DNA of 64,000 nt from an uncultured Syntrophobacterales bacterium (GCA_964519455.1 CAZFIU010000022.1:461-64460); one strand, 5' to 3'; shown: positions 3,274 to 63,215, numbered from the stretch's first letter. The notes: generated by a model not told the origin, from the letters alone. Program-made: numbers and translations.

Positions 3274-4089
3274 ATGTCGGTCATCATGATCTACGAAGGT
3301 ATCCACGGCGCGGAGGCAGTCGCCAACCGGGTCGCGAAGTCCCTGAGCTACAAGTGCGTGGGACGTCAGGATCTGGCGGCCACTCTGCCGAACTACGGCG
3401 TGCCGCGCGCCAAGCTCGACGACATCACGGAGAAGGAGCCGCACTGGTGGGAACAGTGGCTGCAGGACTTGCGGCCCTACCGCATCGCGCTGCAGGCCGC
3501 CATGTGCGAGATGGCTCAGGCCGGCCCGATGGTCTACCACGGACACGTGGGCCACGAGCTGCTCCCCGGAGTCGCCCATGTGCTCAAGGTGTTCCTGACC
3601 GGTCCCATGGAGCTGCGCATCGACCTGCTGCGGTCGCGGCTGGCGGTGGACGAGGGCACCATCCGCAAGCAGCTCGAGCACACCGATCGGGCGCGCAGCC
3701 GGCGGCTCATGTCCCTGTTCGGCCACGACTGGCAGGACCCGAACCGCTACCACTTGGTGCTCAATCTCTCCATGGGCGTGGACGCCGCCAGTGAGGTCAT
3801 CGGCACCGCCGCCCGGCTCCCGGCGTTCGTTGAGACACCAGCCTCCAAGCAAGCCTTCGAAGACTTGGCACTGGCCAGGAAGACCCAGGCGACACTGCTT
3901 CAGTCCGACTTGTACCGCGGCCTGCCCATCGACGTGAAGGCGCACGACGGGACCGTGACGGTGTCCGGCATGGTCTCCCCGCCGGTTACCGTGGAAGGAG
4001 TGGTGGCGGCCGTCAAGAGCATCCCGGACGTCACCAAGGTGACCGCGAATCTCGTGGTGGTGCCGCGCAGCCATTCCGACATCGAATAG
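3274..4089 (+). CDS. Cytidylate kinase-like family protein with a C-terminal BON domain
   Basis: The internal start MSVIMIYEG follows an RBS. The body resembles the cytidylate-kinase-like AAA family, and the tail (DVKAHDGTVTVSGMV...VTANLVVV) is BON-like. The ORF-track start at 3175 is judged too long. Confidence 0.7.
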   Translation: MSVIMIYEGIHGAEAVANRVAKSLSYKCVGRQDLAATLPNYGVPRAKLDDITEKEPHWWEQWLQDLRPYRIALQAAMCEMAQAGPMVYHGHVGHELLPGVAHVLKVFLTGPMELRIDLLRSRLAVDEGTIRKQLEHTDRARSRRLMSLFGHDWQDPNRYHLVLNLSMGVDAASEVIGTAARLPAFVETPASKQAFEDLALARKTQATLLQSDLYRGLPIDVKAHDGTVTVSGMVSPPVTVEGVVAAVKSIPDVTKVTANLVVVPRSHSDIE

Positions 4090-5579: not shown

Positions 5580-5995
5580 CCCAGGCTGTGCCACACTCAT
5601 GAGGTAGAGACCCCTCGGATCTTCATTCCCACGGAACTGGGTGTGTCAATGCTCCACTCGGACACGCAAATGGCACCACACCCCGAATCGTCATTCCCGC
5701 GGAAGCGGGAATCCAGGGGTGGTGGGTGTGGCGGCCTCATTGCCCGGCCCCACCCCGCCTGGATTCCCGCTTCCGCGGGAATGACTCATTGGGGTGTAGT
5801 GGGATTTCGTAACTATCAGAGATCATTGAACAAGATTTTATTTCCATATCAATGACGATTCGGTGGGGTGTCTGCCTCATGAGTTTTGACACAGCCTGTT
5901 CCGCGGGAATGACGTATTATTCGTAATATCTCTGCGTGGAGAGTTTTGACACAGCCCCGGAAGTGGGAATCCGGACGGGGCAAGGCGGGGAGTAC
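5580..5995 (+). repeat. MITE/REP-like palindromic element, copy 2 (full length, right terminal inverted repeat duplicated)
   Basis: The left end (gtgtgtcaatgctccactcggacacgcaaatggcacc) is followed by both hairpins, a tail (...atcattgaacaagattttatttccatatcaatgac...), and the right inverted repeat gagttttgacacagcc, which occurs twice (about 5881 and 5941). Confidence 0.85.
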
Positions 5996-6078
5996 TCCGT
6001 CTCGCGGCCCGCACGGCGATCTGCTACAGATGATCGAGTCCGCCGCAAGAACCCGCGCAACCGCCCACCGAGGAACCC

Positions 6079-8823: not shown

Positions 8824-9112
8824 TCCGTCATTCCCGGCTCCCTCCGTCATTCCCGCTTTCCAGGCTGTGTCAAAACCCCGCTCGGCTACGAAGTGGAAGT
8901 GGCACCGCCACCCCATATCGTCATTCCCGCGCAAGCTTGCCCTCGACTCCGATCGGGGGCGGGAATCCATGGGTGGGGGGTGTGGCGACCTCACTGCCCG
9001 GCCCCACCCCGCCTGGATTCCCGCTTCCGCGGGAATGACTCATTGGGATGTAGCGGGGTTCCGTAACTACCAGAAATCATTGAACAAGACTTTATTTTCA
9101 TATCAATGACCC
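8824..9112 (+). repeat. MITE/REP-like palindromic element, copy 3
   Basis: Same architecture as copy 2. Hairpin 1 carries an insertion (tcattcccgcgcaagcttgccctcgactccgatcgggggcgggaatcc), and the right inverted repeat is missing. Confidence 0.85.
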
Positions 9113-15527: not shown

Positions 15528-15865
15528 CTCGTCATTCCGCGGAAGAGGCTGTGTCAAAACGTTGGCCGGACAAGAGGTGGCACCCACACCCCAATGAGTC
15601 ATTCCCGCGGAAGCGGGAATCCAGGGGTGGGGGGTCTGGCGGCCTTATTGCCCGGCCCCACCCCGCCTGGATTCCCGCTTCCGCGGGAATGACTCATTGG
15701 GGTGTGGCAGGATTCCGTAACTACCAGAAATCATTGGACAAGTTCTTATTTTCATATCAATGACGGTTCGGGGTGGCCGTGCCATTCCGTGTTCGTTTGG
15801 AGTTTTGACACAGCCTGGAAAGCGGGAATCCAGGCGGGGCGAGGCGGGGCTTTGACACCGCTCGC
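15528..15865 (+). repeat. MITE/REP-like palindromic element, copy 4 (full length plus a partial extra hairpin)
   Basis: Left end ggctgtgtcaaaacg, both hairpins, tail, and right inverted repeat gagttttgacacagcc, followed by tggaaagcgggaatccaggcgggg. Confidence 0.85.
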
Positions 15866-17911: not shown

Positions 17912-18937
17912 CTACGGTTCCTGTTCGCCCCTCGGCCCGCCGAAGGCCGACAAGTGCTCCTTGAGAGTGCGGAACCCGGCTTCGTTCAGCCCCGTCGCGG
18001 CCTCGATCACATCCCAGGTCACCCCGACCCTCAGAAAGCCCTCAACTACCTCCACCTTGCCGCGTTGTGCGCCTTCCGCCAGCCCTTGGCCACGGCCTTC
18101 CTCACGTCCTTGGCTCCGGCCTTCCTCACGGCCTTGGCTCCGGCCTTCCGCTCTACCCTCTTCCAGGAGTTGTTGAGCATATGACATGATCTCGCCTCCC
18201 TGCTCGCGGCCACGGCGCCGCAACGCTTCGTTGAAAGCCAGCGCTCCCGCTTCATCCTGTGTCGCCATCACGTACACCATGAATAGACGAATATAGTTCA
18301 CCCCGCCACCTGAAAACAACGTCGCCAGCAACCTCGCCGCGGCGTCCATCGCCAGACCCACGTTCCGTCCATAGGCCGCCATCATCAACAACTGCGCGAT
18401 GCGCCCCTTGACCCCTCCCTCCACGCCGTCCGGACCGAGACTCGTCTGGTCCACCAGCACGTGCTCGAACCGAGGCACCCACGGCCATCCCCGAACCGCC
18501 GCAGGAAACAGGTCCGCGAACTCCGTCGAGTGCCCCCATCCGCGGCCTCCCTGGTAGAACACCACCGGCACGATGGGATGCAACCCCGGCCGCCCCGCCT
18601 CGTCCCGCAGCCCCGCATCCCAGATCCGGCAGCAATACTTGAGCAACCGGAACCGCATCCATGCGTCCGACGTCGATTGATGCTCGAACAGCAGGTACAG
18701 CCATATCCGCTCTGTGTCCTCCCCATACACCGCCTCGTACAGCAGGTCCGACTCGCTCTCCCGCAGGGCGTCGTCCAGGAACGTTCCCTCCAGCAGGTTC
18801 AGCGTCTCCCAATCCACCCTGTCCCGGAATCCGGCGGGCAAAGCCGCCCGCAACAGGCCGGCGGCTTCCGCCGCATCCGAAAACACCGCGCGGAACAGCC
18901 GGTCGTGGGGATGCTCTACTTCGTGGGCCATGGACAC
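17912..18937 (-). CDS. Rpn-family recombination-promoting nuclease / putative transposase (YhgA-like, PD-(D/E)XK)
   Basis: N-terminus HDRLFRAVFSD...LLYEAVYGEDTERIWLYLLFEHQS is characteristic of Rpn/Transposase_31 proteins. The C-terminus carries imperfect tandem 8-aa repeats (GRAEGRSQGREEGRSQGREEGRGQG). Confidence 0.8.
   Translation of the reverse strand: MSMAHEVEHPHDRLFRAVFSDAAEAAGLLRAALPAGFRDRVDWETLNLLEGTFLDDALRESESDLLYEAVYGEDTERIWLYLLFEHQSTSDAWMRFRLLKYCCRIWDAGLRDEAGRPGLHPIVPVVFYQGGRGWGHSTEFADLFPAAVRGWPWVPRFEHVLVDQTSLGPDGVEGGVKGRIAQLLMMAAYGRNVGLAMDAAARLLATLFSGGGVNYIRLFMVYVMATQDEAGALAFNEALRRRGREQGGEIMSYAQQLLEEGRAEGRSQGREEGRSQGREEGRGQGLAEGAQRGKVEVVEGFLRVGVTWDVIEAATGLNEAGFRTLKEHLSAFGGPRGEQEP
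18084..18155. repeat. Three 24-bp tandem repeats inside the Rpn-family gene (ccttggc(c/t)(a/c)cggccttcctcacg(t/g))
   Basis: Direct repeats are visible in the sequence and encode the octapeptide repeats of the protein. Confidence 0.8.
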
Positions 18938-19405
18938 ACCTCCCGGGTCTGGACAAAGACGGCGAGGATTGTTCGCCGCCTGTCCTATGATATTCGGCCC
19001 TTTCCGGTGAGACTTTAGGCCCAGGCTGGATTGTCTTTCCCCTTATCGACCAGTGCGTTCGATCAGGGGTTCAATTCGGCGACGGGTCCGAGTTGAAATG
19101 TCAAAGGGCGGCCTTGAGGTGCGCTCGTCCGGGGCACGCATTCTCGACCACGTGTTTGAGGTCCGCGATTCGGCACGGAGAGACTGTGGCTCTGAGCCCC
19201 GTCAACCCGATGGACTTCCTGTTCCTCGGGAGATGCTGCTCCGCCACCGCGAAGAAAAGCCATTGGCGGGGACCGCTGTGATTGGCATACCTATCGCGCC
19301 TCTCGTCATGCCATGCAAAAACACAGATATCCGCTGGCCGTCCCGGAGAGTCCACCCATCGACTCCCGTCCCCTCAATCGGGTTTGGAGACAAGCTTTCG
19401 CAGGA

Positions 19406-20020
19406 TCACGGATAGGTGAACGTCGGAGGAAGTACGTTGCCAAGGAATGGCCGTCCGAAGTTGTTGCGGATTGTCAAGGCGGATGTCGGATCACGGCGAA
19501 AACGTGAATCGCCAATCTCCCCCTTCACCTTGATGCCGACGTGCTGCTTGAGCGCCTCCTGCACCACTACCTCCACGTCCTCGATCCGCTGCCCCGGATG
19601 ACAGGTCACTTCCGCCCAGCAGAACCAAGTGCGGTCAAGCATTGCCTTGACCGTTTCCCGACTTGTCTTGTCACCCCGACCCTTGACCATGTCGATCGCG
19701 CTTGAGTTTAAGACTCCTACCGGATCCGCTAGGAAATCAACTACGTTCCTCGGGATAGAGAAACACACAGGGTTCTTAAACCAGGAAATCCGTTGCCCGT
19801 CGCTGTCTCGTTTGCCGGCCCCGTGCACATGTTCGTACCAGCGCCTGCCGATGTCGTCTGACTTACCAACGTAATAGCCCGCGTAGGCGTCGCCGGTGGT
19901 TGCCATCACAAAAATGTAGACACCAGTGCCAAGGTAGGGGCAATACCAGTTCGAATAGGGCTCGGGCTCGATCGCTCCCATCGGGACCGATTTCCAATGT
20001 AGATCATAGGTGCCGGACAT
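19406..20020 (-). CDS. GIY-YIG nuclease family protein
   Basis: Motifs GVYIFVMATTGDAYAGYYVGKSDDIGRRWYEH (GIY ... YVG ... R ... E). The internal start MSGTYDL is chosen; the ORF-track N-terminal extension overlaps the upstream gene and is low complexity. Confidence 0.7.
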   Translation of the reverse strand: MSGTYDLHWKSVPMGAIEPEPYSNWYCPYLGTGVYIFVMATTGDAYAGYYVGKSDDIGRRWYEHVHGAGKRDSDGQRISWFKNPVCFSIPRNVVDFLADPVGVLNSSAIDMVKGRGDKTSRETVKAMLDRTWFCWAEVTCHPGQRIEDVEVVVQEALKQHVGIKVKGEIGDSRFRRDPTSALTIRNNFGRPFLGNVLPPTFTYP

Positions 20021-20097
20021 GTTTATGTTCTCCTGTGCCGCGATCCGTAGTTGGTGGGCTTTACCCGGTTCTGGACCGGACACCCGATCTGCTGTAC

Positions 20098-21096
20098 TCA
20101 CCTGTGAGACGAGTAACCGCGATGGTGTGCGGCGAGCGAAGCGCACATTGCCGCAAGCCGCTGGCGAAGGCTGGGCGGCTCCAGGATTGTCACGCTTTCT
20201 CCCCATGTCACGAGATGCCAACAAATTTCTTCGACGCCTCCCGCCCTGAAACGCACCGTCAGCGAGTCGTCGCTGTTCTCAGTGATGGTCTGGCTTGGAT
20301 GGAATTGAAACGCCTTGGCGTCCTGCGCGGCGTCGGCATCGAAGTGGAGCACCACGTCGAAGGGTTCCTCCTGGAAAGTGCCAAATGAACGCTCGGCGTA
20401 CCGCCTCAAATCGAAAGCCGGGTCGCCTTCGAATGGCTCATCGGTGATCTGCGCCTCGCTGATGTTTCCGAGTCTCCAGAGCCTCGGCTTGTTTCCCTGA
20501 TCGGTTCGTCCCACCAGGAAAGCACGGTTGCCGTAAAGAACCCCATAGGGGCAAACCCGCTGGCGGTCCCGCCGCCCCGTTCCTCGTGAAGAATATCTGA
20601 TATAGATCTTACGGTACGTCGTCACGGCCTCTCGCACGAGCGAAAGCAGGCCCTCTTCGAAGCTCTCCCTAGGGCCGGCCCGCATCGCGAGGCCTTCCGC
20701 CTCCATGAGAGCCTCAAGCGCAGCGTCGAACTCTTCGGAAGAGTGTTGGTGCGACGCAGCCCGCAGTTTGACCACAAGACCGCTCACGCGCTCTGCGAGG
20801 TCGGCACGACCTAGACTGCCAGCCACCGCTTCAAGGTCCGCAAGGTCCTCAGGTGTGATGGAGATAAACGGGTTCAGGGCGCGCGACCGAAGCCGCCAAT
20901 GAATCCGACGGTCGCCACTGTCCGTGTCCACAACCTCCAGCGGCCCAAATGCTGCCTCGACGGCATCACGCATTCGCTCCGCCGTACGTCGACTTACGGA
21001 GAACTCGCCCTGGATGTCGGCGATGGTTACGCCGCGGTGGCTTCCTTGGAGGTAGATGGCAAGGCAAACAAGCTCTACGAGGCGTTCGTGACGCAT
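20098..21096 (-). CDS. WYL-domain transcriptional regulator (HTH - WYL - WCX; YafY/BrxR/CapW-like)
   Basis: N-terminal HTH (LVELVCLAIYLQGSHRGVTIADIQGEFSVSRRTAERMRD), a central WYL-like segment (IYIRYSSRGTGRRDRQRVCPYGVLYGNRAFLVG) and a C-terminal extension. Confidence 0.85.
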   Translation of the reverse strand: MRHERLVELVCLAIYLQGSHRGVTIADIQGEFSVSRRTAERMRDAVEAAFGPLEVVDTDSGDRRIHWRLRSRALNPFISITPEDLADLEAVAGSLGRADLAERVSGLVVKLRAASHQHSSEEFDAALEALMEAEGLAMRAGPRESFEEGLLSLVREAVTTYRKIYIRYSSRGTGRRDRQRVCPYGVLYGNRAFLVGRTDQGNKPRLWRLGNISEAQITDEPFEGDPAFDLRRYAERSFGTFQEEPFDVVLHFDADAAQDAKAFQFHPSQTITENSDDSLTVRFRAGGVEEICWHLVTWGESVTILEPPSLRQRLAAMCASLAAHHRGYSSHR

Positions 21097-21122
21097 TCAT
21101 TCTCGGGGCGGAGGGGGGATTG

Positions 21123-21731
21123 TCACCAACGGTGGAGCCCGCCCCACCCGTGTTTATCAATCTTCCCGTAACGCCAAGCAGGAATACCTTTGGGGCCAGC
21201 GCTGCCGATCAGGAAGAGATACTCCGCATTGCTTGCTTCTCCGCATTGGTTGTTAACTGCAACGTGCATACGACATAGGATGTCGAGTTTCCGTTCGAGC
21301 CACATCCTCCTCGCTTCGATGTTCAACTGGTCTTCGGGGTAATCGTAAAAGACCAACACCTTCAAGGGAGAACGGAACATCAATAGCTTCCACATCTCCG
21401 TTTCCACATCTGCCCCATTCTCGTGCTCAACTAGTACGTGCATACCATCTGGATACACTCCTCCACCGCCAGGACGGAAAGTAGCCGTGTCTTCGTCATA
21501 GAAGACGGTATCCAGCGTGTACCATTCCCTCCCCATCGTCAGAGTTCGCCCGGCAACAGGAGGTAGCCTTACCGACAATCGTTCCAGGAAAGAACCGTTC
21601 CCTGCCAGCATGTATCGCGTCCATTCGCGGTCGGTCTGGTAAGCTTGTCGAATGTCGTCTTCCCGCTGCAAAACGTCGTCTTCCCACTGTTGGCAAAATG
21701 CAATGCAGAACTCTTCGGCAGTAGGCATCAA
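21123..21731 (-). CDS. Hypothetical protein (no confident family; possible nuclease-like core VLVEHEN...E.EMWK)
   Basis: 202-aa ORF tightly packed between the AAA gene and the WYL gene, with no recognisable domain. Confidence 0.55.
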   Translation of the reverse strand: MMPTAEEFCIAFCQQWEDDVLQREDDIRQAYQTDREWTRYMLAGNGSFLERLSVRLPPVAGRTLTMGREWYTLDTVFYDEDTATFRPGGGGVYPDGMHVLVEHENGADVETEMWKLLMFRSPLKVLVFYDYPEDQLNIEARRMWLERKLDILCRMHVAVNNQCGEASNAEYLFLIGSAGPKGIPAWRYGKIDKHGWGGLHRW

Positions 21732-21780
21732 CTAAGTCCTCCGTCGTCAATCCGTGAAGATGAAACAGTTGGTAGCACAT

Positions 21781-23868
21781 CTACACGGCAAAACCTATTC
21801 TCTGCGGGTAGGCTGACTTGGCTTCACATTCCTCCCGCAACATTTCCACCACGGCTTTCGGGCGTCTGCGGGAGCCCAGAATCTCCGCCTTTCGGCGCAC
21901 GAGGGCAAAGTCACCCAGTGTCAGGGTGTGAAAACTCGCAATGTCCTCCGGAGGCTCCATCCCCAAGTAAACACGGAAAGCCGCCCTGGCCTGCTCGGAC
22001 GACAGGTAGTCAAGCGCAATCTTGAAGGTGAATCGCCGCAAAGTCGCCGGGTCGAGACGCGCTCCGAAGTTGGTCGTGCAAGCAACCGGGAAGGGATGGC
22101 TCTCCATCCAAGTCAGCATCTCGTTGACTTGGCTCACCTCCCAGTGCCATTCGGCGAGGCGCCGGTCGGCCAGCAGTGAATCGGCTTCGTCGAAGACGAG
22201 GAACGCCTCGGCGTCGCGGGCCTCGGCAAAGGCTTTGGCGATGTTCGTCTCCGTTCCACCGACCCACATCGACATCAGGTCGGATGCACGCTTCTGCACG
22301 ACTTCGAGGCCGAGCCGGCCGGCGAGATACCGGACATATGCGCTCTTTCCCGTGCCCGACGGCCCTTGAAGACACAGCGAGAAGCTCCGAGCACCGCTGG
22401 CAACGAGGCAGTCTGCGAGTTGCACCGGGTCCATGTCGGCGCGGATCAGTGCTGGATCGTACTTGTCTGGTGTCCGTTGACTTGTCGGAGTATCGCCTGA
22501 CAGCACCCGAGCGAGTCCGCGCACGCCGCGATGCACGTCGGCCACGGTCCGGCCACCCATTCCCGCGGCCGCGGTGACGCCGGAAGCCACTCCCGGCGTT
22601 ACGTCAAATTCTCGTGCGAGGGCGCGGGCATCTTCCGGGTCCGCCTTGATGCCGTGGTGCGTCAACTGTCGCACCCAGATGCGTTCCCGTACCTTGGGAG
22701 GCGGTTGACGCAGTTCCAGGGCGAACATCATGCGGCGCAAGATGACGGGACTGGTGGAACGGGCGGCGTTCGATGTCCACAGGATTGGCACCGGCGTCTG
22801 CTCCAGTAGCCTATTCATGAACACTTTCGAGCCTTCAGCCGAACGCTCGGGGACACGGCGCGGCCCCAACCATGCCGCAAGGACCTCCCCCTGTCTGGAG
22901 AGCAAATCCTCCATCTCGTCGAAGAGCAGGATCGAGCGCCGGTCTCCGGCCAGCAAGCCTTGAGCGAGCCGGAGATCCTGTATCCGCTCGCGACGGGAAG
23001 GTTCGTCGCCCGTGGCATCCGATTCTCCCACGACGTAGAGCGGAGCTGCCAGCCGCGAGGCCAAGGTCCGGCAGAACTCCGTCTTGCCCGTGCCGGGCGG
23101 CCCATAGATGAGCACATTGACACCCTTCTGGCCGCTCCGTAACGCTCCGCTCAAGATCCGTGCGAGATGGTCCCGATCGCCGGCGACATGGTCGAAATCG
23201 GACCAGAGCAGCTCGCCAGGGCCGGCCTCGTCAAGTAACAGGCGCTGCACGTTGGCGTCATGCTCGTTCGGAACCCAGTGCAATCGAGTCAACCGGTCGA
23301 TAGTCGCCAAGTCGCCATCGTTGTCGATGGATACCAACCCCGATGTTATGAGGGGCGCGTCGGGAGCCAAGCGGCGATGGACCGTGCCGGCCGACAGACC
23401 GAGCAAGCGTGGGAAAAGCGGGTTGTTCATTCCGAAGCCGTTTCCCCTCCAGTACGGACTCTCGCAAATCGCGTCGACCATCAACGCCACAGGTGATCCG
23501 GTACGGTGTCGCAGCAATAACTCCAGGATCGCGGTATCGGTCCGGGAAAGACGCGTAGCCTTTGCGAGACGACGGAGGCGCCTCGCGGTCCGATCCGGGC
23601 GTACGTGTTGAGCCGCAAGCAAGGCGCCTTTGGAAGCCTCTCCCACGCGCTGCCACACCCGCGCCGGGAGATCGTAGTCTCGCAACCCTCGTTCCAATGC
23701 AACTTGGGCTTCATCGTCCTCTCGCAGCAAGTACGGAAGACCCAGTTGGTCCTCATTCTCTCCTAGCCACAGCACCAGGTCCTTGGCCTGCTGGTCGCGG
23801 CACTGGAGGTGCGGAACGACGTTCGACAGGTAGAAGAGGATGAGACGGCGTTCGTATGCAGACAGCAT
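21781..23868 (-). CDS. Tandem classic-AAA+ ATPase (N-terminal roughly 240-aa unknown domain followed by two AAA modules)
   Basis: First module: Walker A VLIYGPPGTGKTE, Walker B ILLFDEMEDLL, sensor-1 TSN. Second module: Walker A LQGPSGTGKSA, SMWVGGTETNIAKAF, Walker B FLVFDEADSLL, sensor-1 CTTN and the arginine-finger region LDPATLRRFTF. The true start MLSAYERRL is at 23866-23868, preceded by a G-rich RBS. The ORF-track extension to 25083 is an antisense artefact over the LLM gene. Confidence 0.8.
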   Translation of the reverse strand: MLSAYERRLILFYLSNVVPHLQCRDQQAKDLVLWLGENEDQLGLPYLLREDDEAQVALERGLRDYDLPARVWQRVGEASKGALLAAQHVRPDRTARRLRRLAKATRLSRTDTAILELLLRHRTGSPVALMVDAICESPYWRGNGFGMNNPLFPRLLGLSAGTVHRRLAPDAPLITSGLVSIDNDGDLATIDRLTRLHWVPNEHDANVQRLLLDEAGPGELLWSDFDHVAGDRDHLARILSGALRSGQKGVNVLIYGPPGTGKTEFCRTLASRLAAPLYVVGESDATGDEPSRRERIQDLRLAQGLLAGDRRSILLFDEMEDLLSRQGEVLAAWLGPRRVPERSAEGSKVFMNRLLEQTPVPILWTSNAARSTSPVILRRMMFALELRQPPPKVRERIWVRQLTHHGIKADPEDARALAREFDVTPGVASGVTAAAGMGGRTVADVHRGVRGLARVLSGDTPTSQRTPDKYDPALIRADMDPVQLADCLVASGARSFSLCLQGPSGTGKSAYVRYLAGRLGLEVVQKRASDLMSMWVGGTETNIAKAFAEARDAEAFLVFDEADSLLADRRLAEWHWEVSQVNEMLTWMESHPFPVACTTNFGARLDPATLRRFTFKIALDYLSSEQARAAFRVYLGMEPPEDIASFHTLTLGDFALVRRKAEILGSRRRPKAVVEMLREECEAKSAYPQRIGFAV

Positions 23869-23984
23869 GACAACCCCCCATTTGTGACGTCCATGGGGGA
23901 CCGTAGCGTGAATGTGCGTCAGTTTCGGACGTACCCGGCTGTCCTCGACGCAGATTTTTCTGGAAGTGGCGAGAGGCGCGGTCC

Positions 23985-24992
23985 TTACACCCGCGGCAGC
24001 ACCGCCGAACCGAACAGTTCCATCGCTGCGAGGATGTCCTTCTGCTCCAGCCCCGGCGTCCAGTCGAAGCGCAGCAGCAGCAAATCCGGCTTGAGCGACT
24101 CCTCGTAGGAGCGGATCTCTTCGATGCAGTCCTCGGGGGAGCCGAGGATGAAGCGGTGGCGGGCGAGGCGGTCGAAGTCCCAGGTTAGCTCGTCGGGGTT
24201 GGTCATGGCCTCGTCCTGGCCCCACTTGACGTAGACGTCGCGGTAGAGCTTGTCGAGGCAGGGGCGGGCCTTGGCCACGGCCTCGTCGCGGGTGGGGGCG
24301 ACGAAGCATTCCCGGACCATGACCAGGGCGCCGGCGCCTGGCTTGCCGGTGTCGGCCCATGCTTGGCGGAAAAGCGTAGTCTGTTCCTTCAACTCCTCGA
24401 TGGCTGAATGGGGTCCCACGAGCCAGCCGTCGCCGATGCGGGCGGCGCGCTTGACGCCCGTGTCGCCGTTGGCGGCGATCCAGACGGGCGGGCGCGGCTT
24501 CTGCAGCGGGCGCGGGGCGATGGTGACGTCCTTCAGTTCGAAGGCGTTGCCTGAGAACGAGACGTGTTCCTCGGTCCAGAGACGCTGGACGATTTCGACA
24601 CCTTCCACGAAACGGTCGAAGCGTTGCTTCTTTGTGAGGTTGAACGCGTCCAACTCCTGCTGCCGGTAACCCAGGCCGAAGGAAAAGACGGCGCGGCCCT
24701 CGTTCATGACGTCGATGGTGGCCAGCTCCTTGGCGATGACCACGGGGTCGTGGAGGCCGAGGAGCGTGGCGGCGGTGCCGACGCTGGCCCGCTTGGCCTC
24801 GGCGCAGAGCCGGCCCAGGAGCGGCACTTGGTGCAGCCGCTGAAAGCCGGGGATGTTGTAATGCTGGCCCATGGTGATGGCCTCGAACCCGGCTTCGTCG
24901 GCCACCCGGGTCTGTTCCGCCAGCGTGGGCAGGAGGGTCTCGGGGGGCTTCTCGATGGAAACCTGGGGATTGAGTTGGATACCGAATCTCAT
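23985..24992 (-). CDS. LLM-class (luciferase-like) flavin-dependent oxidoreductase
   Basis: 335 aa of TIM-barrel LLM family (MRFGIQLNPQ..., ...FSFGLGYRQQELDAFNL...). Confidence 0.9.
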   Translation of the reverse strand: MRFGIQLNPQVSIEKPPETLLPTLAEQTRVADEAGFEAITMGQHYNIPGFQRLHQVPLLGRLCAEAKRASVGTAATLLGLHDPVVIAKELATIDVMNEGRAVFSFGLGYRQQELDAFNLTKKQRFDRFVEGVEIVQRLWTEEHVSFSGNAFELKDVTIAPRPLQKPRPPVWIAANGDTGVKRAARIGDGWLVGPHSAIEELKEQTTLFRQAWADTGKPGAGALVMVRECFVAPTRDEAVAKARPCLDKLYRDVYVKWGQDEAMTNPDELTWDFDRLARHRFILGSPEDCIEEIRSYEESLKPDLLLLRFDWTPGLEQKDILAAMELFGSAVLPRV

Positions 24993-25846: not shown

Positions 25847-28114
25847 TCAACCCTTGCGGCCGAGCGCCCTCCACACGCGCTCCGGCGTCAGCGGCAACTC
25901 CCGGATACGCACTCCCGTGAGCCGGGCGACAGCATTGGCCACGGCCGGCGCCACCGCGACGATGCCGGACTCGCCCATGCCCTTGGCGCCCCAGGGGCCG
26001 GGGCCGTCCTGGTTCTCGGTCAGGGCCACTTCGAAACGGCGCGGCATTTCCGCGAAGCCCGGCACCTTGTAGTCGATCAGATTGGGATTGAGGGGCTGGC
26101 CGTTGTCATAGAGCAGGCTCTCGCACAAGGTGTGGCCCATGCCCATCATGGCGGCGCCTTCGTCCTGGGCCTCGGCCTGGAGCCGGTTGATGGCCTTGCC
26201 TACGTCGGCGACGCTGGCGTAGTGCGGGACGCGCACCTCGCCGGTCTCCTGGTCCACGGTTACCGCCGCGGCGCCCATGCCGGTCTCCCAGAACACCGGG
26301 AACTGTGCGGGGATGCCGCCGCCGGCGCGCACGTAGCCGCGGCCGATGAACTCGCCGCCGGGCATGGCGAAGTAGGCCCGCACCACGGCGCCGTAGTCCA
26401 TGCGCTTGCCGTCGGCCTCGGCCCATCCGTTCTCCAGGGACACGGCGGGCGCTTCGCAGCCCATGGCCTCGGCCGCCGCCTTTCGGATCTGCTCCCGCAG
26501 ATCCCCGGCCGCGAATTTCACCGCGGTGCCCATCACCGTGGTGGAACGGCTCGCGCCGGTGGAGCGGTCGAAGGGCGTCACGTCCGTATTGGTGGCGCGC
26601 ATGACGATCCGTTCCGGCGGAAGGCGCAACTCCTCGGCGGCCACCTGGCCCAGCACGGTGCGCGCCCCCTGTCCCACCTCGGTGCTGCCGGCCATGAGCA
26701 CCACGCTGCCGTCGCTCAGAAGGCGCAGGATGGCGGTGGACACGGGCATGGCCTCGGAGTCGGTGACGCCCACGGCGATGCCGAGGTTGTCCGCCGGCGC
26801 ACCCTGCTTCTCGTCCCAGCCCACCATGGACGCGCACTGCCGCAGGTCCATGTGCAGGTCCGCGTCCATGGGCTTGGCGCCGGGCTTCAGCTCCTCGTCG
26901 CGGCGCAGCAGGTTCTTGAGGCGGAACGCCAGCGGGTCGATTTCCAGGCCCCTCGCGATGTCGTCCATGTGGCACTCCAGCGGGAAGATGGACTGGGGTC
27001 CGCCGATGGAGCGCATGGAGCCCGCGGGCGCGGTGTTGGTGTACACGGCGTAGACGTCGATGCGGTAGTGGGGAATGCGGTAGGGGCCGTGGATGCGCGT
27101 GGCCACGCGCTTGGCCACGCGCGGGCCGTTGTCGGCGTAGGCGCCGGTGTCCAGGTGGACCTGCGCCTCCCGCGCCACCACGGTACCGTCCTTTCGCACC
27201 CCGGTCTTCACCCTGCAGCGGGCGGAGTGGCGCCGGATGGTGAGCATGGACTCGGATGCGCTCTGGGCCAAGCGCACGGGACGCCCGCCGGCGGTGCGCG
27301 CCAGTGCCACCGCCAGGGGTTCGATCTTGAAGTAGGACTTGCCGCCGAAGGCGCCGCCCACGTAGGGCACGGTCACGCGCACGTTGGGCATGGGTACCCG
27401 GAACATCTGGGCGATCTCGGCGCGGATGAGGAAGGGGTGGGCGGAGGAGGTCCAGAGCGCGATCTCGTCACCCTCGAACCGTGCCACCGCGGTGTGGGGC
27501 TCCAGGGAGTAGTGGCAGATCATCGGGAACTCGAAGGTGTCCTCGAAGACCGCGTCCGCCTGCACGAAGCCCGCGGCCACGTCGCCCGCCTCCAGCCGCT
27601 CGTGGTGGCAGACGTTGAGCGGAGGCTCCTCCTCCAGCGCCGCCAGCTCGTGGTACTCCCCGGCCAGGGCCTTGGTGTCGTGCAACACCGGCGCGTCCGG
27701 CGCCAGCGCCTCGTCCAGGGTGGCGGCGGCCGGGACCTCCCGGTAACGCACGCGCACCAGGGACAGCGCCTGTTCGGCGATGTCGCCGCTCTCGGCCGCC
27801 ACGGCCACCACCGGCTCGCCGACGTAACGCACCCGGTCGGTGGCGATGAGCGGCCGGTCCCGCAGGCAGTGGCCGTAGTAGGGGTCGATGTCCTTGACGG
27901 ATTCGCGGGTGAGAACGCCGTGGACGCCCGGAAGCGCCTCGGCCGCGCGCACGTCGATGCTCTCGATCAGGGCATGGGGAAACGGGCTGCGGAGGACCCT
28001 GCCCTCCAGCAGCCCGGGGAAATCGAGATCGGCCGTGAACCGGGCCTTGCCGGTGACCTTCTCCACCCCTTCCGCGCGGCGGATGGAGCGGCCGACCGTG
28101 GTGAACCGCGCCAT
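25847..28114 (-). CDS. Xanthine dehydrogenase / CO dehydrogenase-family molybdopterin-binding large subunit (orphan)
   Basis: Start at MARFTTVGRSIRRAEGVEKVTGKARF. Conserved motifs include GGAFGGK, APAGSMRSIGGPQ and GKAINRLQAEAQDEG. No small (2Fe-2S) or medium (FAD) subunit gene is adjacent. Confidence 0.85.
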   Translation of the reverse strand: MARFTTVGRSIRRAEGVEKVTGKARFTADLDFPGLLEGRVLRSPFPHALIESIDVRAAEALPGVHGVLTRESVKDIDPYYGHCLRDRPLIATDRVRYVGEPVVAVAAESGDIAEQALSLVRVRYREVPAAATLDEALAPDAPVLHDTKALAGEYHELAALEEEPPLNVCHHERLEAGDVAAGFVQADAVFEDTFEFPMICHYSLEPHTAVARFEGDEIALWTSSAHPFLIRAEIAQMFRVPMPNVRVTVPYVGGAFGGKSYFKIEPLAVALARTAGGRPVRLAQSASESMLTIRRHSARCRVKTGVRKDGTVVAREAQVHLDTGAYADNGPRVAKRVATRIHGPYRIPHYRIDVYAVYTNTAPAGSMRSIGGPQSIFPLECHMDDIARGLEIDPLAFRLKNLLRRDEELKPGAKPMDADLHMDLRQCASMVGWDEKQGAPADNLGIAVGVTDSEAMPVSTAILRLLSDGSVVLMAGSTEVGQGARTVLGQVAAEELRLPPERIVMRATNTDVTPFDRSTGASRSTTVMGTAVKFAAGDLREQIRKAAAEAMGCEAPAVSLENGWAEADGKRMDYGAVVRAYFAMPGGEFIGRGYVRAGGGIPAQFPVFWETGMGAAAVTVDQETGEVRVPHYASVADVGKAINRLQAEAQDEGAAMMGMGHTLCESLLYDNGQPLNPNLIDYKVPGFAEMPRRFEVALTENQDGPGPWGAKGMGESGIVAVAPAVANAVARLTGVRIRELPLTPERVWRALGRKG

Positions 28115-28245
28115 GGAGTCCTTCGACTTCGCGACGCTACGCCCGTCCGACGCCTGTCGAAAGGCTTCGGACGAACGCAGCAAAAAGGACCCGCGGCTTC
28201 ATGTCAGCGTCTTCGTGAAACGGGACATTGAAGTGGTCCCCGGGG

Positions 28246-30244: not shown

Positions 30245-30510
30245 CCCGGCTGTCATTCATCCGCTCCCCCCGATTGTCATTCCCGCGGAACAGGCCGTGT
30301 CAAAACTCTGCTCAGACACGAAATGGCACCAACCCCCCATACCGTCATTCCCGCGGAAGCGGGAATCCAGGGGTGGTGCGGCGGGGAATACGGCCGTTTG
30401 GCCCCTCCCAACCTCTGGATTCCCGCTTCCGCGGTAATGACGACTCGAGGGGTCTCAGCCTCATGAGTCCTGACACGACCCACTTTCGCGGGAATGATAA
30501 TCGAGAATGA
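30245..30510 (+). repeat. MITE/REP-like palindromic element, copy 5
   Basis: A degenerate left partial is followed by caggccgtgtcaaaactctgctcagacacgaaatggcacc, both hairpins (second variant gcggtaatgac), and gcctcatgagtcctgacacgacc. Confidence 0.85.
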
Positions 30511-34184: not shown

Positions 34185-34545
34185 TTTCCCACCCCGCCTC
34201 GAAACGTCATTCCCGCGGAACAGGCTGTGTCAAAACTCCACTTGGAGTGGAACTGGCACCGACCTCCAGAATCGTCATTCCCGCGGAAGCGGGAATCCAG
34301 GGGTGGAGAGGGGCAAACGGGCTGTTCCCCGCCTCACCCCACCTGGATTCCCGCTTCCGCGGGAATGACGGTTCTGGAGGTCGGCGCCAATTTTGGGGGT
34401 TCGTGCCAGTTCGTGTCTGAGCAGAGTTTTGACACGACCTGTTCCGCGGGAATGACGGTTCGGGGCGTGGTGCCATATTCGTGTCCGAGCGGAGTCTTGG
34501 CACAGCCTGGGAAGCGGGAATCCAGGGGTGGGGGTGTGGCGGGAT
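34185..34545 (+). repeat. MITE/REP-like palindromic element, copy 6 (full length, with two right-end repeats)
   Basis: Contains gtcattcccgcggaacaggctgtgtcaaaactcc...both hairpins...gagttttgacacgacc...gagtcttggcacagcctgggaagcgggaatccagggg. It ends directly against the stop codon of the 34548 gene. Confidence 0.85.
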
Positions 34546-38869: not shown

Positions 38870-39202
38870 CTATCCGAAGATCGTAGCGAGCCGGGCCACC
38901 ACGTCGTCGATGATGTGTTCGGGGGCAGCTTCAAGGCGTCTCCCCTTCCGCGCGAACAGATCGAGCGTGCGGGGCTGGTCGCAACGGATCACGCCGACGG
39001 TTCGGGTGCCTGCGCCATCGAGCGAAACGGCAAACCCGCGCTGGCGGGCGAAGCCCCCGCCCGTGGTGATGGGCAACACGACTGGCGCCCGGGTCAGTTC
39101 GTTGAAGGAAGCGGGCGAAACGATAAGTACCGGACGGGTCCCCTGCTGTTCATGGCCGGCTACGGGATCAAGGCTGACCAGCCAGATTTCCCCCCGTTTC
39201 AC
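38870..39202 (-). CDS. mazF: MazF/PemK-family endoribonuclease toxin
   Basis: MKRGEIWLVSLDPVAGHEQQGTRPVLIVS... is the canonical MazF/PemK N-terminus. Confidence 0.8.
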   Translation of the reverse strand: MKRGEIWLVSLDPVAGHEQQGTRPVLIVSPASFNELTRAPVVLPITTGGGFARQRGFAVSLDGAGTRTVGVIRCDQPRTLDLFARKGRRLEAAPEHIIDDVVARLATIFG

Positions 39203-57964: not shown

Positions 57965-58100
57965 ACCATTCCCGCTTTACCCACCTACGACTCGCCCTCC
58001 CTACCACCGAGGCATTCCCTCCCTACCACCTTCGAGTCATTCCCGCGGAAGCTTGCCCTCGACCCCGATCGGGGGCGGGAATCCAGGGGTTGGGGAGGGG
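57965..58100. repeat. MITE/REP-like element, copy 7 (partial; variant hairpin with a long loop)
   Basis: Contains gagtcattcccgcggaagcttgccctcgaccccgatcgggggcgggaatccagggg, the same loop insertion seen in copy 3. Confidence 0.7.
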
Positions 58101-58111
58101 AGCGCATCGCC

Positions 58112-58483
58112 CTACGGCTCCGAGAAATCGAACGCATGCCGCACGTGGCGCACCGCCGGCGGGTCCGAGCGCAACGAAATGCCGACCACGTCGAACTGCA
58201 CGTCCCGGTCATGCAAGTGATGTCTGTTGAGATAGTGCAGCGCGGCGCGCTTCAACCGCCGCTGCTTGGCGCCGTTGACCGATTCCAGCGGCGCCCCCGA
58301 CGTGTCCACCCTGCGGGTCTTCACCTCCACGAACACCACGGCGCGCTTGTCCAGTGCGATCAGGTCGATCTCGCCCAACGGGCACCGATAGTTGCGCTCG
58401 ACGATGGCATAGCCCTGGCGCTTGAGGTAACGTTCGGCGAGTTCTTCCCCCGCCTTGCCCATAGACTGCCGCGGATCACTCAT
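58112..58483 (-). CDS. yraN: YraN-family protein (UPF0102, predicted endonuclease)
   Basis: ...GEELAERYLKRQGYAIVERNYRCPLGEIDLIALDKRAVVFVEVKTRR... is the family pattern. Confidence 0.8.
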   Translation of the reverse strand: MSDPRQSMGKAGEELAERYLKRQGYAIVERNYRCPLGEIDLIALDKRAVVFVEVKTRRVDTSGAPLESVNGAKQRRLKRAALHYLNRHHLHDRDVQFDVVGISLRSDPPAVRHVRHAFDFSEP

Positions 58484-58569: not shown

Positions 58570-58695
58570 AGGCCCGGAACCGTCATTCCCGCGGAACAGG
58601 GTGTGTCAGAACCCCGCTCAAGCAGGAGACAGCACGGCCCCCCCCCCCCCCGAAACGTCATTCCCGCGGAAGCGGGAATCCAGGCGGGATGGGCT
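58570..58695 (+). repeat. MITE/REP-like element, copy 8 (left half plus hairpin 1), containing a 13-nt poly-C tract
   Basis: Contains gtcattcccgcggaacagggtgtgtcagaaccccgctc...ggC13gaaacgtcattcccgcggaagcgggaatccaggcggg. Homologous spacers in other copies carry only 4-6 C. Confidence 0.8.
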
Positions 58696-59837: not shown

Positions 59838-61322
59838 ATGACCACCGATCCGTGTTTCCTCGGCATCCATGAACTGCACGACCGGCTGTGCCGCCGCGAA
59901 CTGAGCGCCGTCGAGTTGGCGGAAGCGCTGTTCGGGCGCATCGACGCCACCGACCACGCCATCGGCGCCTACCTCGCCGTGTCACGCGAGCAAGGCATGG
60001 AGGCCGCGCGCCGGGCGGATGCGCGCTTCGCCGCGGGCGACGTGTCGTCGAAGCTGCTCGGCATTCCCGTGGCGCTCAAGGACGTGCTCCTCACCGACGG
60101 TGTCGCCACCACGTGCGCATCCAGGATCCTGAATGGGTTCACACCGCCCTACGACGGCACCGCGGTGCGCCGCCTCAAGGACGCTGGGGCCGTGCCCCTG
60201 GGCAAGACCAACATGGACGAGTTCGCCATGGGCTCCTCCAGCGAGAACTCCGGCTACGCCATCACCCGCAACCCCTGGAACCTCGACCACGTGCCGGGCG
60301 GCTCCTCCGGCGGTTCCGCCGCCGCGGTGGCCGCCGGCCAGTGCATCGCCGCGCTGGGGACGGACACCGGCGGGTCCATCCGCCAGCCGGCGTCGTTCTG
60401 CGGCATCGTCGGGCTCAAGCCCACCTATGGGCGGGTGAGCCGGTACGGCGTAGTGGCGTATGCGTCCTCGCTGGACCAGGTGGGCCCCATGACCCGGGAC
60501 GTCACCGACTGCGCGCTGGTGCTCCAGGCCATCGCCGGCCACGACCCCGCGGACTCCACCTCGGGGGACGTGCCCGTGCCCGACTACGCCGCGGCGTTGA
60601 CCGGCGACGTCAAGGGAATGCGTATCGGCGTGCCCCGGGAATTCTTCGCGACCGGGCTCCAGCCCGACGTGGAACAGGCGGTGCGGCAAGCCATCCGGGA
60701 ACTGGAGAAGGCCGGCGCCGTGGTGATGGAGGTATCGCTCCCGCGGAACGATTACGCCGTGGCCGCCTACTACGTCATCGCCGCCGCCGAGGCCAGCTCC
60801 AACCTGGCGCGCTACGACGGCATGCGCTACGGCCCCCGCGCCGACGCCGGCGACCTCACCGCCACCTACATGAAGAGCCGCGCCCAGGGATTCGGAAAGG
60901 AAGTGAAACGGCGGATCATGCTCGGCACCTACGTGCTGTCCGCCGGCTACTACGACGCCTACTACCTCAAGGCGCAGAAGGTCAGAACGCTGCTCAAGCA
61001 GGACATGGAATCGGCCCTGAGCGGCTGCGACGCCATCGTCGCCCCCACCTGCCCCACCACCGCCTTCAAGCTCAACGAAATGACCCACGACCCGCTGCAG
61101 ATGTACCTGTCCGACATCCTCACCATCTCGGTGAACCTGGCGGGGCTCCCCGCGCTGTCAGTGCCGTGCGGCTTCGATACCGCTGGTCTGCCCATCGGCA
61201 TGCAGATCATCGGGAAGCACTTCGATGAGGCCACGGTGCTGCGACTGGGATACGCCTACGAGCAGGCGACGGAGTGGCATACGTGGAAGCCGGCGCTGCC
61301 GTTGCCGGCAACTTCCTCGTAA
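59838..61322 (+). CDS. gatA: Asp-tRNA(Asn)/Glu-tRNA(Gln) amidotransferase subunit A
   Basis: Amidase signature ([14 protein letters not shown]...[16 protein letters not shown]) in a 494-aa protein. Confidence 0.95.
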
Positions 61323-61339
61323 ATCTCCTCTGCGGTTCT

Positions 61340-61530
61340 CCGGGAATCGCCTCCGCCCCCTGCTAGTTACGGAATCCCGCTACCCCCCAACGAGTCATTC
61401 CCGCTTCCGCGGGAATGACTCGTTGGGGGGTAGCGGGATTCCATAACTAGCAGAAATCATCGAACAAGATTTTATTTTCGGATCAATGACGGTTCGAGGG
61501 GTGTCTGCTTACTGAAGTCATTGCATAATA
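61340..61530. repeat. MITE/REP-like element, copy 9, built around a 94-bp near-perfect palindrome (61360..61453)
   Basis: Sequence ctgctagttacggaatcccgctaccccccaacgagtcattcccgc-ttcc-gcgggaatgactcgttggggggtagcgggattccataactagcag (45-bp arms, 1 mismatch). It is followed by the family tail ...atcatcgaacaagattttattttcggatcaatgacggttcg... Confidence 0.85.
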
Positions 61531-61587
61531 TTCAATGACGGCAAGCCGTGGCGCGAATGAGCAGGTGAAGGCGCACGCGCACCGGGC

Positions 61588-62742
61588 TTACGCCGTACCC
61601 AGTATCAGCGTCGCGTGCATGGCCAGGCTGCCGCCGTGGCCGCTGATGATGCCGGCCTTGGCATCGGCCACCTGGCGCTCGGACTCGACCTCGTTGCCGC
61701 GGAGCTGGCGGGCGCCTTCGGTGAGGTGCAGCATGCCCTCCAGGTGCGCCTGGGACAGGAGGCCGCCGTGGGTGTTGAGGGGGATCTCGCCGCCGATGCC
61801 GATGCGGCCGTCCTTGACGAAGTCCTTGCCCTCGCCTTTCTCGCAGAAGCCATAGTCCTCCAGGGTGATCATGGCGGTGATGGTGAAGCAGTCGTACAAC
61901 TCGGCGAAGTCCATGTCCCTGGGCTCAAGGCCGGCCATGTCGTAGGCCATGCGCGAGGACTTGCGGCCGCCCAGAGTGGTGAGGGTGGGCGCGTCCAGCA
62001 GGCTGAAGTGGGGATGGTGTTGCCCCATGCCGAGGATCACCACCGGCGGCTTGGGGAAGTCCCTGGCGCGCTCCAGGCTGGTGACCAGGACGGCGCCGCC
62101 GCCATCGGATTCCAGCGAGCAGTCCAGCAGGTGCAATGGCGCGACGATCATGCGCGACTGCTGGTGGTCCTCCAGCGTGATGGGCTTCTTCATGGTGGCG
62201 TTGGAGTTGAGCGATGCGTGCCGGCGGGTGGAGATGGCGATCTCCGCCAGGTCCTCGCTGCGGGTGCCGAACTCGTACATGTGGCGCTGGGCGGCCAGCG
62301 CGTGGCCGGCGGCGGCGGCGAAGTGCCCCCAGGGCCGCTCCCAGTGCTCGTCGCCCCGGCGGATGGGGTAGCCGGGGGTGGCGTCGCCGGTGGAACGCTT
62401 GCGCGCGTGCACGCACACCACCGTGTGGCACATGCCCGCGTCGATGGCCATGACCGCGTGCTGCACCATGGCGATGGGCGTGGCGCCGCCGAGCGCCAGG
62501 TCGGTGGCGTACACCGGAGTGATGCCGGCCATGTGCGCCAGCCGCACGGCGTAGCTCCGGTGAGCGTCGTTCAGCGGCTGGTTGGTGACAAAGCCGTCCA
62601 CCGCGTCGCCGCGGATGCCCGCGTCGTCGAGACAGGCACGGATGGCTTCCAGGTGCAGCGAATGCGTGGTTCCGTCCGGACGCTTGCCCACCTGCGTCTC
62701 GCCCACGCCGACGATGGCGTACTTGCCTCCGAGATTGGCCAT
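61588..62742 (-). CDS. Thiolase-like protein (SCP-x / nonspecific lipid-transfer-protein-type thiolase)
   Basis: 384 aa with thiolase fold markers (IVGVGETQVGKRPDG, CHTVVCVHARK, NTHGGLLSQAHLEG). Confidence 0.85.
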   Translation of the reverse strand: MANLGGKYAIVGVGETQVGKRPDGTTHSLHLEAIRACLDDAGIRGDAVDGFVTNQPLNDAHRSYAVRLAHMAGITPVYATDLALGGATPIAMVQHAVMAIDAGMCHTVVCVHARKRSTGDATPGYPIRRGDEHWERPWGHFAAAAGHALAAQRHMYEFGTRSEDLAEIAISTRRHASLNSNATMKKPITLEDHQQSRMIVAPLHLLDCSLESDGGGAVLVTSLERARDFPKPPVVILGMGQHHPHFSLLDAPTLTTLGGRKSSRMAYDMAGLEPRDMDFAELYDCFTITAMITLEDYGFCEKGEGKDFVKDGRIGIGGEIPLNTHGGLLSQAHLEGMLHLTEGARQLRGNEVESERQVADAKAGIISGHGGSLAMHATLILGTA

Positions 62743-62869: not shown

Positions 62870-63215
62870 CTCTCCAGGCTGTGCCGAATCTCCGCTCCGA
62901 AGAGAAATGGTGTCACCCCCCGAGTCGTCATTCCGGCGAAACAAGGGTGTGCCAAGACTCCGCTCGGACACGAAACGGCACCACCCTCCCGAAACGTCAT
63001 TCCCGCGAAAGCGGGAATCCAGGCGGGGGAGGGCGGGGAATACGCCGATTGCCCCACCCCACCCCTGGATTCCCGCCTTCGCGGGAATGACGTTTCGGGG
63101 GACCTATGCCTATGAGTCTTGACGCAGCCTGTTTCGCGCGAATGACGACTCGTAGGATCCACACCTCGCAAGCTTCGACGCAGCCCTGTTGCGCGGGAAT
63201 GACGTATTCGGGCCG
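62870..63215 (+). repeat. MITE/REP-like palindromic element, copy 10 (most divergent; left module duplicated)
   Basis: Contains caggctgtgccgaatctccgctccg...ggtgtgccaagactccgctcggacacgaaacggcacc...gtcattcccgcgaaagcgggaatccaggcggg...cctggattcccgccttcgcgggaatgacg...tatgagtcttgacgcagcc...cttcgacgcagccctgttgcgcgggaatgacg. Confidence 0.8.

Follow-up and report, generated by a model that had tools for sequence, protein, structure and literature searches.

In the interval that separates gatA from a convergent thiolase-like gene, an uncultured bacterium carries a near-perfect palindrome of 94 bp that is most probably the product of one replication template switch, in which the nascent strand folded back at hairpin 2 of an ordinary two-hairpin repeat element. 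It occupies positions 61360-61453 of the window, by which the whole 64-kb stretch of DNA that was analysed is meant, and reads CTGCTAGTTACGGAATCCCGCTACCCCCCAACGAGTCATTCCCGC-TTCC-GCGGGAATGACTCGTTGGGGGGTAGCGGGATTCCATAACTAGCAG, with two 45-nt arms that are 98% complementary in the repeat search and that enclose a 4-nt loop. The first-pass annotation had described at this place a palindrome with 45-bp arms and one mismatch, lying between gatA and a convergent thiolase gene, and in both respects it is borne out by the re-read sequence, which is identical, by the repeat search and by the positions and strands of the two genes (Table 1). The sole mismatch sets C61370 opposite A61443; on the minus strand the same pair becomes a G-T (G-U) wobble, and an RNA of the thiolase strand is predicted to form an uninterrupted 45-bp helix. 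Folded as single-stranded DNA, the region 61360-61453 reaches -60.9 kcal/mol versus -18.1 +/- 2.7 kcal/mol in shuffled versions (z = -15.7). When the whole window was scanned for hairpin-type palindromes with a loop of at most 12 nt and at most one mismatch, the longest had these 45-nt arms, the runner-up had 14 nt and shuffled sequence gave 12-15 nt, so that this is the only hairpin-type palindrome above chance in the 64 kb.

Table 1. Features of the gatA-thiolase interval, the same interval in relatives, and copies of the repeat family (window coordinates unless a relative or locus is named).
Feature	Position	Strand	Remarks
gatA, 494 aa	59838..61322	+	Amidase family relatives; 100% identical to P0127
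gatA-thiolase spacer of the window	61323-61587
Left flank kept in relatives	61323..61359	+	ATCTCCTCTGCGGTTCTCCGGGAATCGCCTCCGCCCC; begins right after the gatA stop codon
Junction sequence	within 61340-61470		GCCTCCGCCCCCTGCTAGTTACGG
Left arm of palindrome	61360..61404	+	Reverse complement of right arm except at 61370
CTG at left-arm start	61360-61362	+	Possibly retained flank; microhomology with CAG 61451-61453
Mirrored segment in left arm	61361-61396 (36 nt)	+	Stands where relative L012 has 141 nt
Core of the palindrome	61397..61416	.	ATTCCCGC-TTCC-GCGGGAAT, dRS3-type ATTCCC-N8-GGGAAT; GAGTC/GACTC on both sides
Loop	61405..61408	+	TTCC (minus strand GGAA); loop of the repeat family's hairpin 2
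Right arm of palindrome	61409..61453	+	Hairpin-2 right half GCGGGAAT, GAC, first 34 nt of T module
T-module remainder, unmirrored	61454..61490	+	AAATCATCGAACAAGATTTTATTTTCGGATCAATGAC; belongs to the ~71-nt T module
Degenerate right-hand element module	61491..61545	+	Ends in decayed half core ..TTCAATGACGGCAAG
Convergent thiolase-like gene, 384 aa	61588..62742	-	Thiolase_C_1
Spacer in L012	1806-2026		GatA 95% identical to window; full T-type two-hairpin element
Spacer in L013	2249-2535		GatA 94%; A-type two-hairpin element
Spacer in L014	5489-5531		GatA 93%; almost empty
Spacer in L003	2856-3155		GatA 91%; A-type two-hairpin element
Spacer in L005	11492-11520		GatA 88%; almost empty
Spacers in L004, L006	11459-12778, 11465-13997		GatA 88-89%; extra genes, 355 aa and 714 aa
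T modules in window	5786-5856, 9040-9110, 15694-15764, 61420-61490
T modules in locus L011	~3314-3384, ~5971-6043	-
NTS-motif copies (0-2 mismatches), first seven	3047-3074, 3120-3147, 5689-5716, 5759-5786, 9013-9040, 15597-15624, 15667-15694
NTS-motif copies (0-2 mismatches), remaining seven	30343-30370, 30415-30442, 34273-34300, 34343-34370, 58656-58683, 62995-63022, 63065-63092

The palindrome is built on a repeat family of which the window holds 15 cores of the form ATTCCCGC-N4-GCGGGAAT, present in every large intergenic gap. The central ATTCCC-N8-GGGAAT is the dRS3 consensus of the Neisseria intergenic mosaic elements, or NIMEs (PMC1797815), and dRS3 is contained in the 28-nt Neisseria Transformation Sequence (NTS), CGTCATTCCCGCGMAVGCGGGAATCYRG, a motif targeted, as a single strand and in a set orientation, by the GIY-YIG nuclease SsnA (PMC11893778). 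All but one of the 15 cores match the oriented 28-nt NTS motif with 0-2 mismatches, each on exactly one strand (the motif search of the published study allowed one mismatch; PMC11893778), and most of these 14 copies form tail-to-tail pairs ~50 nt apart. The usual unit reads GTC-core (loop GGAA)-CCAGG, then ~50 nt, then CCTGG-core (loop TTCC)-GAC, which amounts to two copies of one oriented hairpin in an inverted pair, and a full two-hairpin unit forms a long imperfect palindrome in its own right (arms of 56-61 nt at 85-91%).

The outer modules of the family are of at least two kinds, A-type and T-type. On the right, A-type copies read ..GGGAATGAC followed directly by GATTCGAGGGG..CTCATGAGTCTTGACACAG, and T-type copies carry an extra block of ~71 nt, TCATTGGGGTGTAGCGGGATTCCGTAACTACCAGAAATCATTGAACAAGATTTTATTTTCATATCAATGAC, after GGGAATGAC, upon which the A-type module resumes. 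Four T-type copies lie in the window (5763, 9017, 15671 and 61397) and two more at locus L011. The T module is partly AT-rich, is bounded by AATGAC..AATGAC and has the ends TCATTG/CAATGA, so that it resembles a tiny nested insertion; its place directly after GGGAATGAC is the 5' side of the minus-strand NTS. The other three T modules of the window all stand just upstream of genes on the same strand (6079+, 9138+ and 15875+). The idea that the AT-rich module acts as an outward promoter gained no support from a sigma-70 promoter scan, which gave no promoter-like sites at the palindrome or at the three other T modules. A search of the whole window against Rfam at the gathering threshold returned no match.

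Comparison with the other T-type copies indicates which arm of the palindrome was copied from the other. The T-type copies at 5775, 9029 and 15683 and the two in L011 are colinear with the right arm, and the canonical T-type tail runs on for ~110 nt, whereas the left arm ends against the gatA flank, its homology stopping exactly at nt 45. Because the right arm follows the canonical tail and the left one stops short, we take the right arm to be the original and the left arm to be the copy; furthermore, the left arm is of the tail type and not of the module that normally lies left of the hairpins. Both arms depart in the same way from the consensus of five independent T-type copies, at arm positions 14 (A>G), 21 (T>G) and 42 (C>G), and the latter two changes are absent from all five. 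Since they share these three changes, the arms are each other's closest relatives, and as reverse complements they are identical at 44 of 45 positions. The lone difference is a G>A at 61443 in the right arm, the left arm having the consensus base at the corresponding position, and this change came later than the palindrome itself. The earlier proposal that hairpin 2 and its 3' flank had been mirrored onto the left side is thereby supported, namely by the tail-type left arm, the shared substitutions and the end of homology at nt 45.

The same observations bear on the view that a second, inverted, tail-bearing copy arrived head-to-head by transposition or by site-specific recombination through an enzyme of the family itself, in which case the palindrome would stem from the mobility of the element. 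The site is dynamic among relatives, being found empty, with A-type or T-type elements or with gene insertions; in Neisseria, dRS3 is described as a recombinase target (PMC1797815), and the same core is treated as the REP, ATTCCCGCGCAGGCGGGAATC, of a Group-2 RAYT/REPIN system (bioRxiv 10.1101/2021.07.10.451892). However, the left arm is only a 45-nt part of a module, its locus-specific substitutions are those of the right arm, synteny is undisturbed to either side, and no transposase or nuclease gene was seen within the 64-kb window, all of which makes such an arrival highly improbable. The intact synteny on both sides also excludes the reading of the palindrome as an inversion junction.

The gene order gatC-gatA-spacer-thiolase-gatB is kept across the relatives, the spacer is highly variable, and both flanks of the palindrome are colinear with four of these relatives. 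The nearest relative with a readable spacer is L012, which is identical to the window at 393 of 417 nt across the gatA 3' end and the flank. Here the same left flank, ..GAATCGCCTCCGCCCCC, is followed by 141 nt of an ordinary element (left module, hairpin 1, spacer and CCTGG) and then by hairpin 2 and GACTCATTGGGGTGTAGTGGGA, the start of the T tail, inside which the L012 contig ends. These 141 nt correspond to 36 nt in the window that are the reverse complement of the right flank. Compared with the L012-like state, hairpin 1 and the left module are gone from the locus and the stem has grown from 8 to 45 bp. At the return junction the microhomology would consist of C alone, or of CTG if the ancestor began with CCCCCTGGA as do the elements of L003 and L013, which start CC(C)CTGGAT; the element of L012 starts with CCCCCCGGA. 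The 8 nt at 61340-61347 (CCGGGAAT), which have the spacing from hairpin 2 that a remnant of hairpin 1 would have, were considered as such a remnant and rejected because they are part of the conserved flank in L003 and L012, where full elements follow to the right. On the far side, the end of the degenerate module at 61491..61545 is orthologous to ..GGGAATGACGGTAAG in L003 and to ..GAAATGACGGCAAG in L013. The palindrome itself is absent from every relative examined, including those whose GatA is 93-95% identical, and we therefore regard it as young and lineage-specific.

Several further features of the locus came to light in this comparison. Among close relatives the gatA-thiolase spacer is a hotspot of change, being near-empty or holding repeat elements or whole genes, and the extra genes of 355 aa and 714 aa in two of them gave no Pfam match. 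In all relatives gatB is separated from gatCA by the antisense thiolase gene. The C-terminus of GatA (window 61290-61322, compared with the gatA 3' ends in L005 and L014) varies, with one ending in the group of 494-aa proteins and others in forms of 485-496 aa, and in L014 the gatA stop codon lies inside a half core, GCGGGAATGACGG; it seems that turnover of the repeats has altered the final codons of gatA.

The exact reverse complement with its private variants, together with the unswitched sequence that L012 keeps between the same flanks, is what a template switch would leave behind, and the suggestion of such an origin in the first-pass annotation is upheld by the mirrored arm, by the shared substitutions and by the ordinary element at the same site in L012. 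The ancestral spacer, as reconstructed from L012, which is a relative and not a member of the same lineage, would have consisted of the left flank, a left module, hairpin 1 with the NTS on the plus strand, a spacer of ~50 nt, hairpin 2 with the NTS on the minus strand, and the T-module tail. Synthesis of a nascent minus strand would have proceeded leftwards through the tail, the right half of hairpin 2, its loop and the left core half, whereupon the 3' end of this strand (..GCGGGAAT) could have folded back to pair with its own ATTCCCGC in an 8-bp stem capped by a GGAA loop. Extension of the folded strand on itself over ~34-37 nt would have written the reverse complement of the right flank, and re-annealing to the parental template at the flank through 1-3 nt of microhomology (CAG/CTG) would have passed over 141 nt. 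The same product would result from a cross-fork switch on the other strand, and GC skew is weak, so that leading and lagging strands are not assignable from it. The product and the states before and after are read directly from the sequences, from which we infer the order of the steps, the strand and whether one step or two were taken.

Template switching has been found to create perfect stems tens of bases long in a single event (PMC8794818) and to perfect quasipalindromes in E. coli (PMC7202029). The mutations described in these two reports resemble the present case in that an inverted templated patch turns an asymmetric hairpin into a perfect stem in one event, in that shared 'compensatory' changes appear in both arms, and in that parent and descendant are compared. 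Documented switches in bacteria mostly correct a few bases, whereas here ~36 nt would have been templated and 141 nt lost, with a multi-copy repeat as the seed. On this reading the locus is a clean natural case of a template switch, with a 45-bp stem made in one step, 141 nt deleted, and both the state before (L012) and the state after (the window) preserved. Such cases help to calibrate the detection of template switches and show how repeat hairpins seed larger palindromes.

How far the palindrome departs from its family was assessed in a survey of 38 cores from the window and from fetched loci, 29 of them from the window and Binatia-related loci. The stem around the core's own loop measures 8 bp in the ordinary cores (n = 32), 13-17 bp in bare hairpins of Alphaproteobacteria (n = 4), 20 bp in one collapsed copy, L011:6048, and 45 bp at 61397, which is thus the only long-armed core of the 38. 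A scan of the species-genome collection for symmetric cores returned five loci only, four of which are the bare alphaproteobacterial hairpins with 13-17-nt arms. No second symmetric core with a T tail was found in ~185,000 species genomes or in the JGI metagenomes, where scans for a symmetric core with a T arm and for the generic T tail gave 0 matches each. The visible diversity of the family is a mosaic of module insertions, deletions and loop expansions, and the palindrome is a single case among the 38 cores; the broader claim that it shows how the family diversifies by template switching is therefore not sustained. Among the loop expansions are hairpin-1 variants at 8920-8972 and 58036-58088, 93% alike, in which the loop has gained ~30 nt and which read GTCATTCCCGCG-CAAGCTTGCCCTCGAC(T/C)CCGATCGGGG-GCGGGAATCC; their sequence suggests a sub-family with an insertion inside the hairpin loop.

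The collapsed copy in L011 gives some substance to a history in two steps, in which a deletion between the direct repeats ATTCCCGC of hairpins 1 and 2 left a single symmetric hairpin whose outer arms paired imperfectly, and a later quasipalindrome correction, through a short template switch or repair templated by the hairpin, perfected the outer 20-35 nt. At L011:6043-6072 it reads GAGTC-core-GACTC, has 20-nt arms and lies between an A-type module and a T tail; the TTCC loop and the GTC on its left flank are as expected from such a deletion, and full elements already form long imperfect palindromes. Collapse followed by correction would yield the same product. It would nevertheless call for two rare events where one suffices, its second step would still be a template switch of at least 30 nt, and no relative examined has an intermediate at this site, so that we consider the two-step course unlikely. 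The simple collapse of hairpin 1 onto hairpin 2 falls short as an explanation, as it predicts arms of only ~11-24 nt with unlike outer parts, which is the state of L011:6048.

Palindromes and multi-copy repeats are error-prone in assembly, and short-read contigs do break at this site, which raises the question of an assembly or library artefact in which fold-back chimeric reads or a mis-join in the graph replaced what is in truth an ordinary element. Several observations make this very unlikely: four relatives are colinear with the window on both flanks, a pure fold-back artefact would not leave the arms different at one position, and the k=31 Logan contig L001 (9 runs) has its start precisely at 61413. 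Near the site, the only repeated 31-mers of the window are 61371-61374 and 61409-61412, arm against arm, and the mismatch at 61443 makes 61413-61443 the last unique 31-mer. The break of L001 at 61413 hence implies that the mirrored arm is present in the reads, as the 31-mer 61412-61442, in which locus-specific substitutions are included, would have a single context in an L012-like structure. The Logan contigs L001 and L002 reproduce the right arm with its private variants, and the k=31 contigs carry the thiolase gene. The nine runs behind L001 may come from the same project as the genome assembly, which makes this evidence independent of the assembler, perhaps not of the libraries.

If the single template switch is accepted, its trigger can be considered. 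The core of the palindrome is the only one of the 15 window cores that lacks the NTS motif, with 6 mismatches on either strand. In its hairpin, GAGTC-core-GACTC, the 5' flank GTC is found whichever strand is read and the 3' CCAG is missing from both, and the C immediately 3' of the palindromic core is absent on both strands. For SsnA, this C is reported to be the most critical for binding, and the three bases (GTC) 5' of the palindrome are reported to be critical for cleavage (PMC11893778). By analogy with SsnA, the locus would have gone from two oriented sites to none, with the flanks now locked in the stem. The fold-back could be the footprint of the repair of a break made by the family's own enzyme, either an Ssn-type single-strand nuclease or a RAYT, instead of a slip of the polymerase, with the 3' end left at the hairpin priming synthesis on itself; we hold this to be a doubtful proposition. 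Were it true, the palindrome would be a natural record of the enzyme acting on chromosomal DNA in an uncultured phylum, and it would illustrate one way in which NTS/dRS3-type arrays are remodelled and lose oriented recognition sites.

A gene for such an enzyme was sought in several ways. The 64-kb window and ~100 kb of related loci gave no Ssn gene in a motif scan or in a Pfam search of small ORFs, six real Ssn proteins used as tblastn queries had no counterpart there, and neither tblastn with YhbQ nor a regular-expression search for the cognate enzyme gave a match in the window and the related loci. Among 10 small ORFs scanned in the window, none has the domain of a RAYT (IS200/IS605-like Y1 transposase). 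Ssn homologues numbered 7,996 overall, and none of the 120 listed is labelled Binatia or Deltaproteobacteria. The NTS motif with the same flanks also occurs in Azospirillum and Sphingomonas plasmids, with no ssn nearby, and in N. gonorrhoeae, where NTS copies stand on both sides of an ssnA homologue (NTS-ssnA-NTS). The latter lies at L017:20184-20456 on the minus strand (L017 is NZ_CP119142.1 1871137-1902171) and has no in-frame ATG where SsnA of N. meningitidis starts (MQPAVY..); the source of L017 is one of two complete N. gonorrhoeae chromosomes that are filed as plasmids in PLSDB.

The host of the window family belongs to an uncultured lineage whose GatA is 86-91% identical to proteins of 'Deltaproteobacteria bacterium' MAGs and ~70% identical to Candidatus Binatia proteins, and the sole other genome with this tail type in the species-genome collection is labelled Candidatus Binatia. 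Like the NTS and the related Ssn-related motifs (SRM), the copies of the window family cluster between genes, have mosaic modules between them and vary in number where synteny is kept; the family differs in its host, a relative of the 'Deltaproteobacteria bacterium'/Candidatus Binatia MAGs and not Neisseria, and the hairpin of the palindrome itself lacks the motif although the surrounding family carries it. The family likewise shows the architecture of NIMEs, with 20-bp ATTCCC-N8-GGGAAT repeats and mosaic spacer modules of 50-150 bp in strain-variable intergenic arrays, and the core of the palindrome keeps the ATTCCC-N8-GGGAAT. NIMEs have been described as specific to Neisseria (PMC1797815), and the likeness is thus one of architecture and does not establish common descent. 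With REPINs, which are inverted REP doublets mobilised by RAYTs, the normal elements of the window share two inverted cores, at a distance below 130 bp, from which one long imperfect hairpin can form. The palindrome differs from a REPIN in having one core only and long near-perfect arms that derive from the flanking module and not from a second REP; the ancestor-like relatives and the majority of the window's other copies are doublets.

The oriented NTS/dRS3 hairpin is therefore abundant in a Binatia-related uncultured lineage, with ~14 copies per 64 kb in mosaic, strain-variable, NIME-like arrays. This abundance of a Neisseria-type array in a Binatia-related genome extends the host range of such arrays, suggests these genomes as a place in which to search for the cognate enzyme, and is a by-product of the analysis that is more notable than the palindrome. 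In sum, a known mutation process and an NTS/dRS3-type family in a new host lineage make this a new instance of known things.

As to function, the position of the palindrome, which starts 38 nt past the gatA stop codon and 134 nt past the stop of the convergent thiolase-like gene, and the very stable stem predicted in either transcript would suit a selected element that acts as a bidirectional transcription barrier, a stabiliser of mRNA 3' ends or a site for a dimeric protein between the convergent genes. Against this, the palindrome is missing from all the relatives examined, even the closest, the ordinary elements at the same site already supply hairpins, and a U-tract is lacking beyond the stem on both strands. 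Next to the stem come AAATCATCG on the plus strand and GGGGCGGAGG on the minus strand, neither with a T run (criterion: within 0-2 nt), and a scan for intrinsic terminators over 61200-61700 on both strands found no terminator-like site, nor did a scan within the three other T modules of the window. A selected role of this kind has very little likelihood, and the earlier description of the palindrome as an efficient bidirectional terminator is left unsupported by the missing T/U run on both strands and by the empty consensus scan. As in Rho-independent terminators and REP-type stabilisers of mRNA 3' ends, a GC-rich stem-loop stands just downstream of convergent genes, but it differs from Rho-independent terminators in lacking the T/U run and in a 45-bp stem that is far longer than is typical for them. 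As RNA, the 45-bp stem would belong to the 3' UTR of each of the two convergent transcripts, where it might stop exonucleases or prevent read-through in the manner of REP-type hairpins. At the DNA level, palindromes such as this one, 94 bp long around a 4-nt centre, are able to form hairpins during replication (PMC7999016). There is no sign of a function, nor is one needed to explain the palindrome, which is probably neutral or mildly destabilising.

A few other observations were made elsewhere in the window. Inside a repeat element that adjoins a YraN/UPF0102 gene (58112-58483, minus strand), a run of 14 C at 58638-58651 is a potential slippage tract or source of sequencing error. An inverted similarity of 175 nt at 71% (8382-8556 versus 26120-26294) falls within two long ORFs, 6079-8823 (plus strand) and 25847-28183 (minus strand); these are probably paralogues in opposite orientation without a link to the repeat family. 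The stretch ~18900-24000 has a GC content of 0.62 versus 0.66-0.68, and its ORFs fail a GC3 filter that the other genes pass; it may have been acquired horizontally. In addition, a gene for a MazF/PemK-type toxin is located at 38870-39202 on the minus strand (Pfam E = 1.6e-27).
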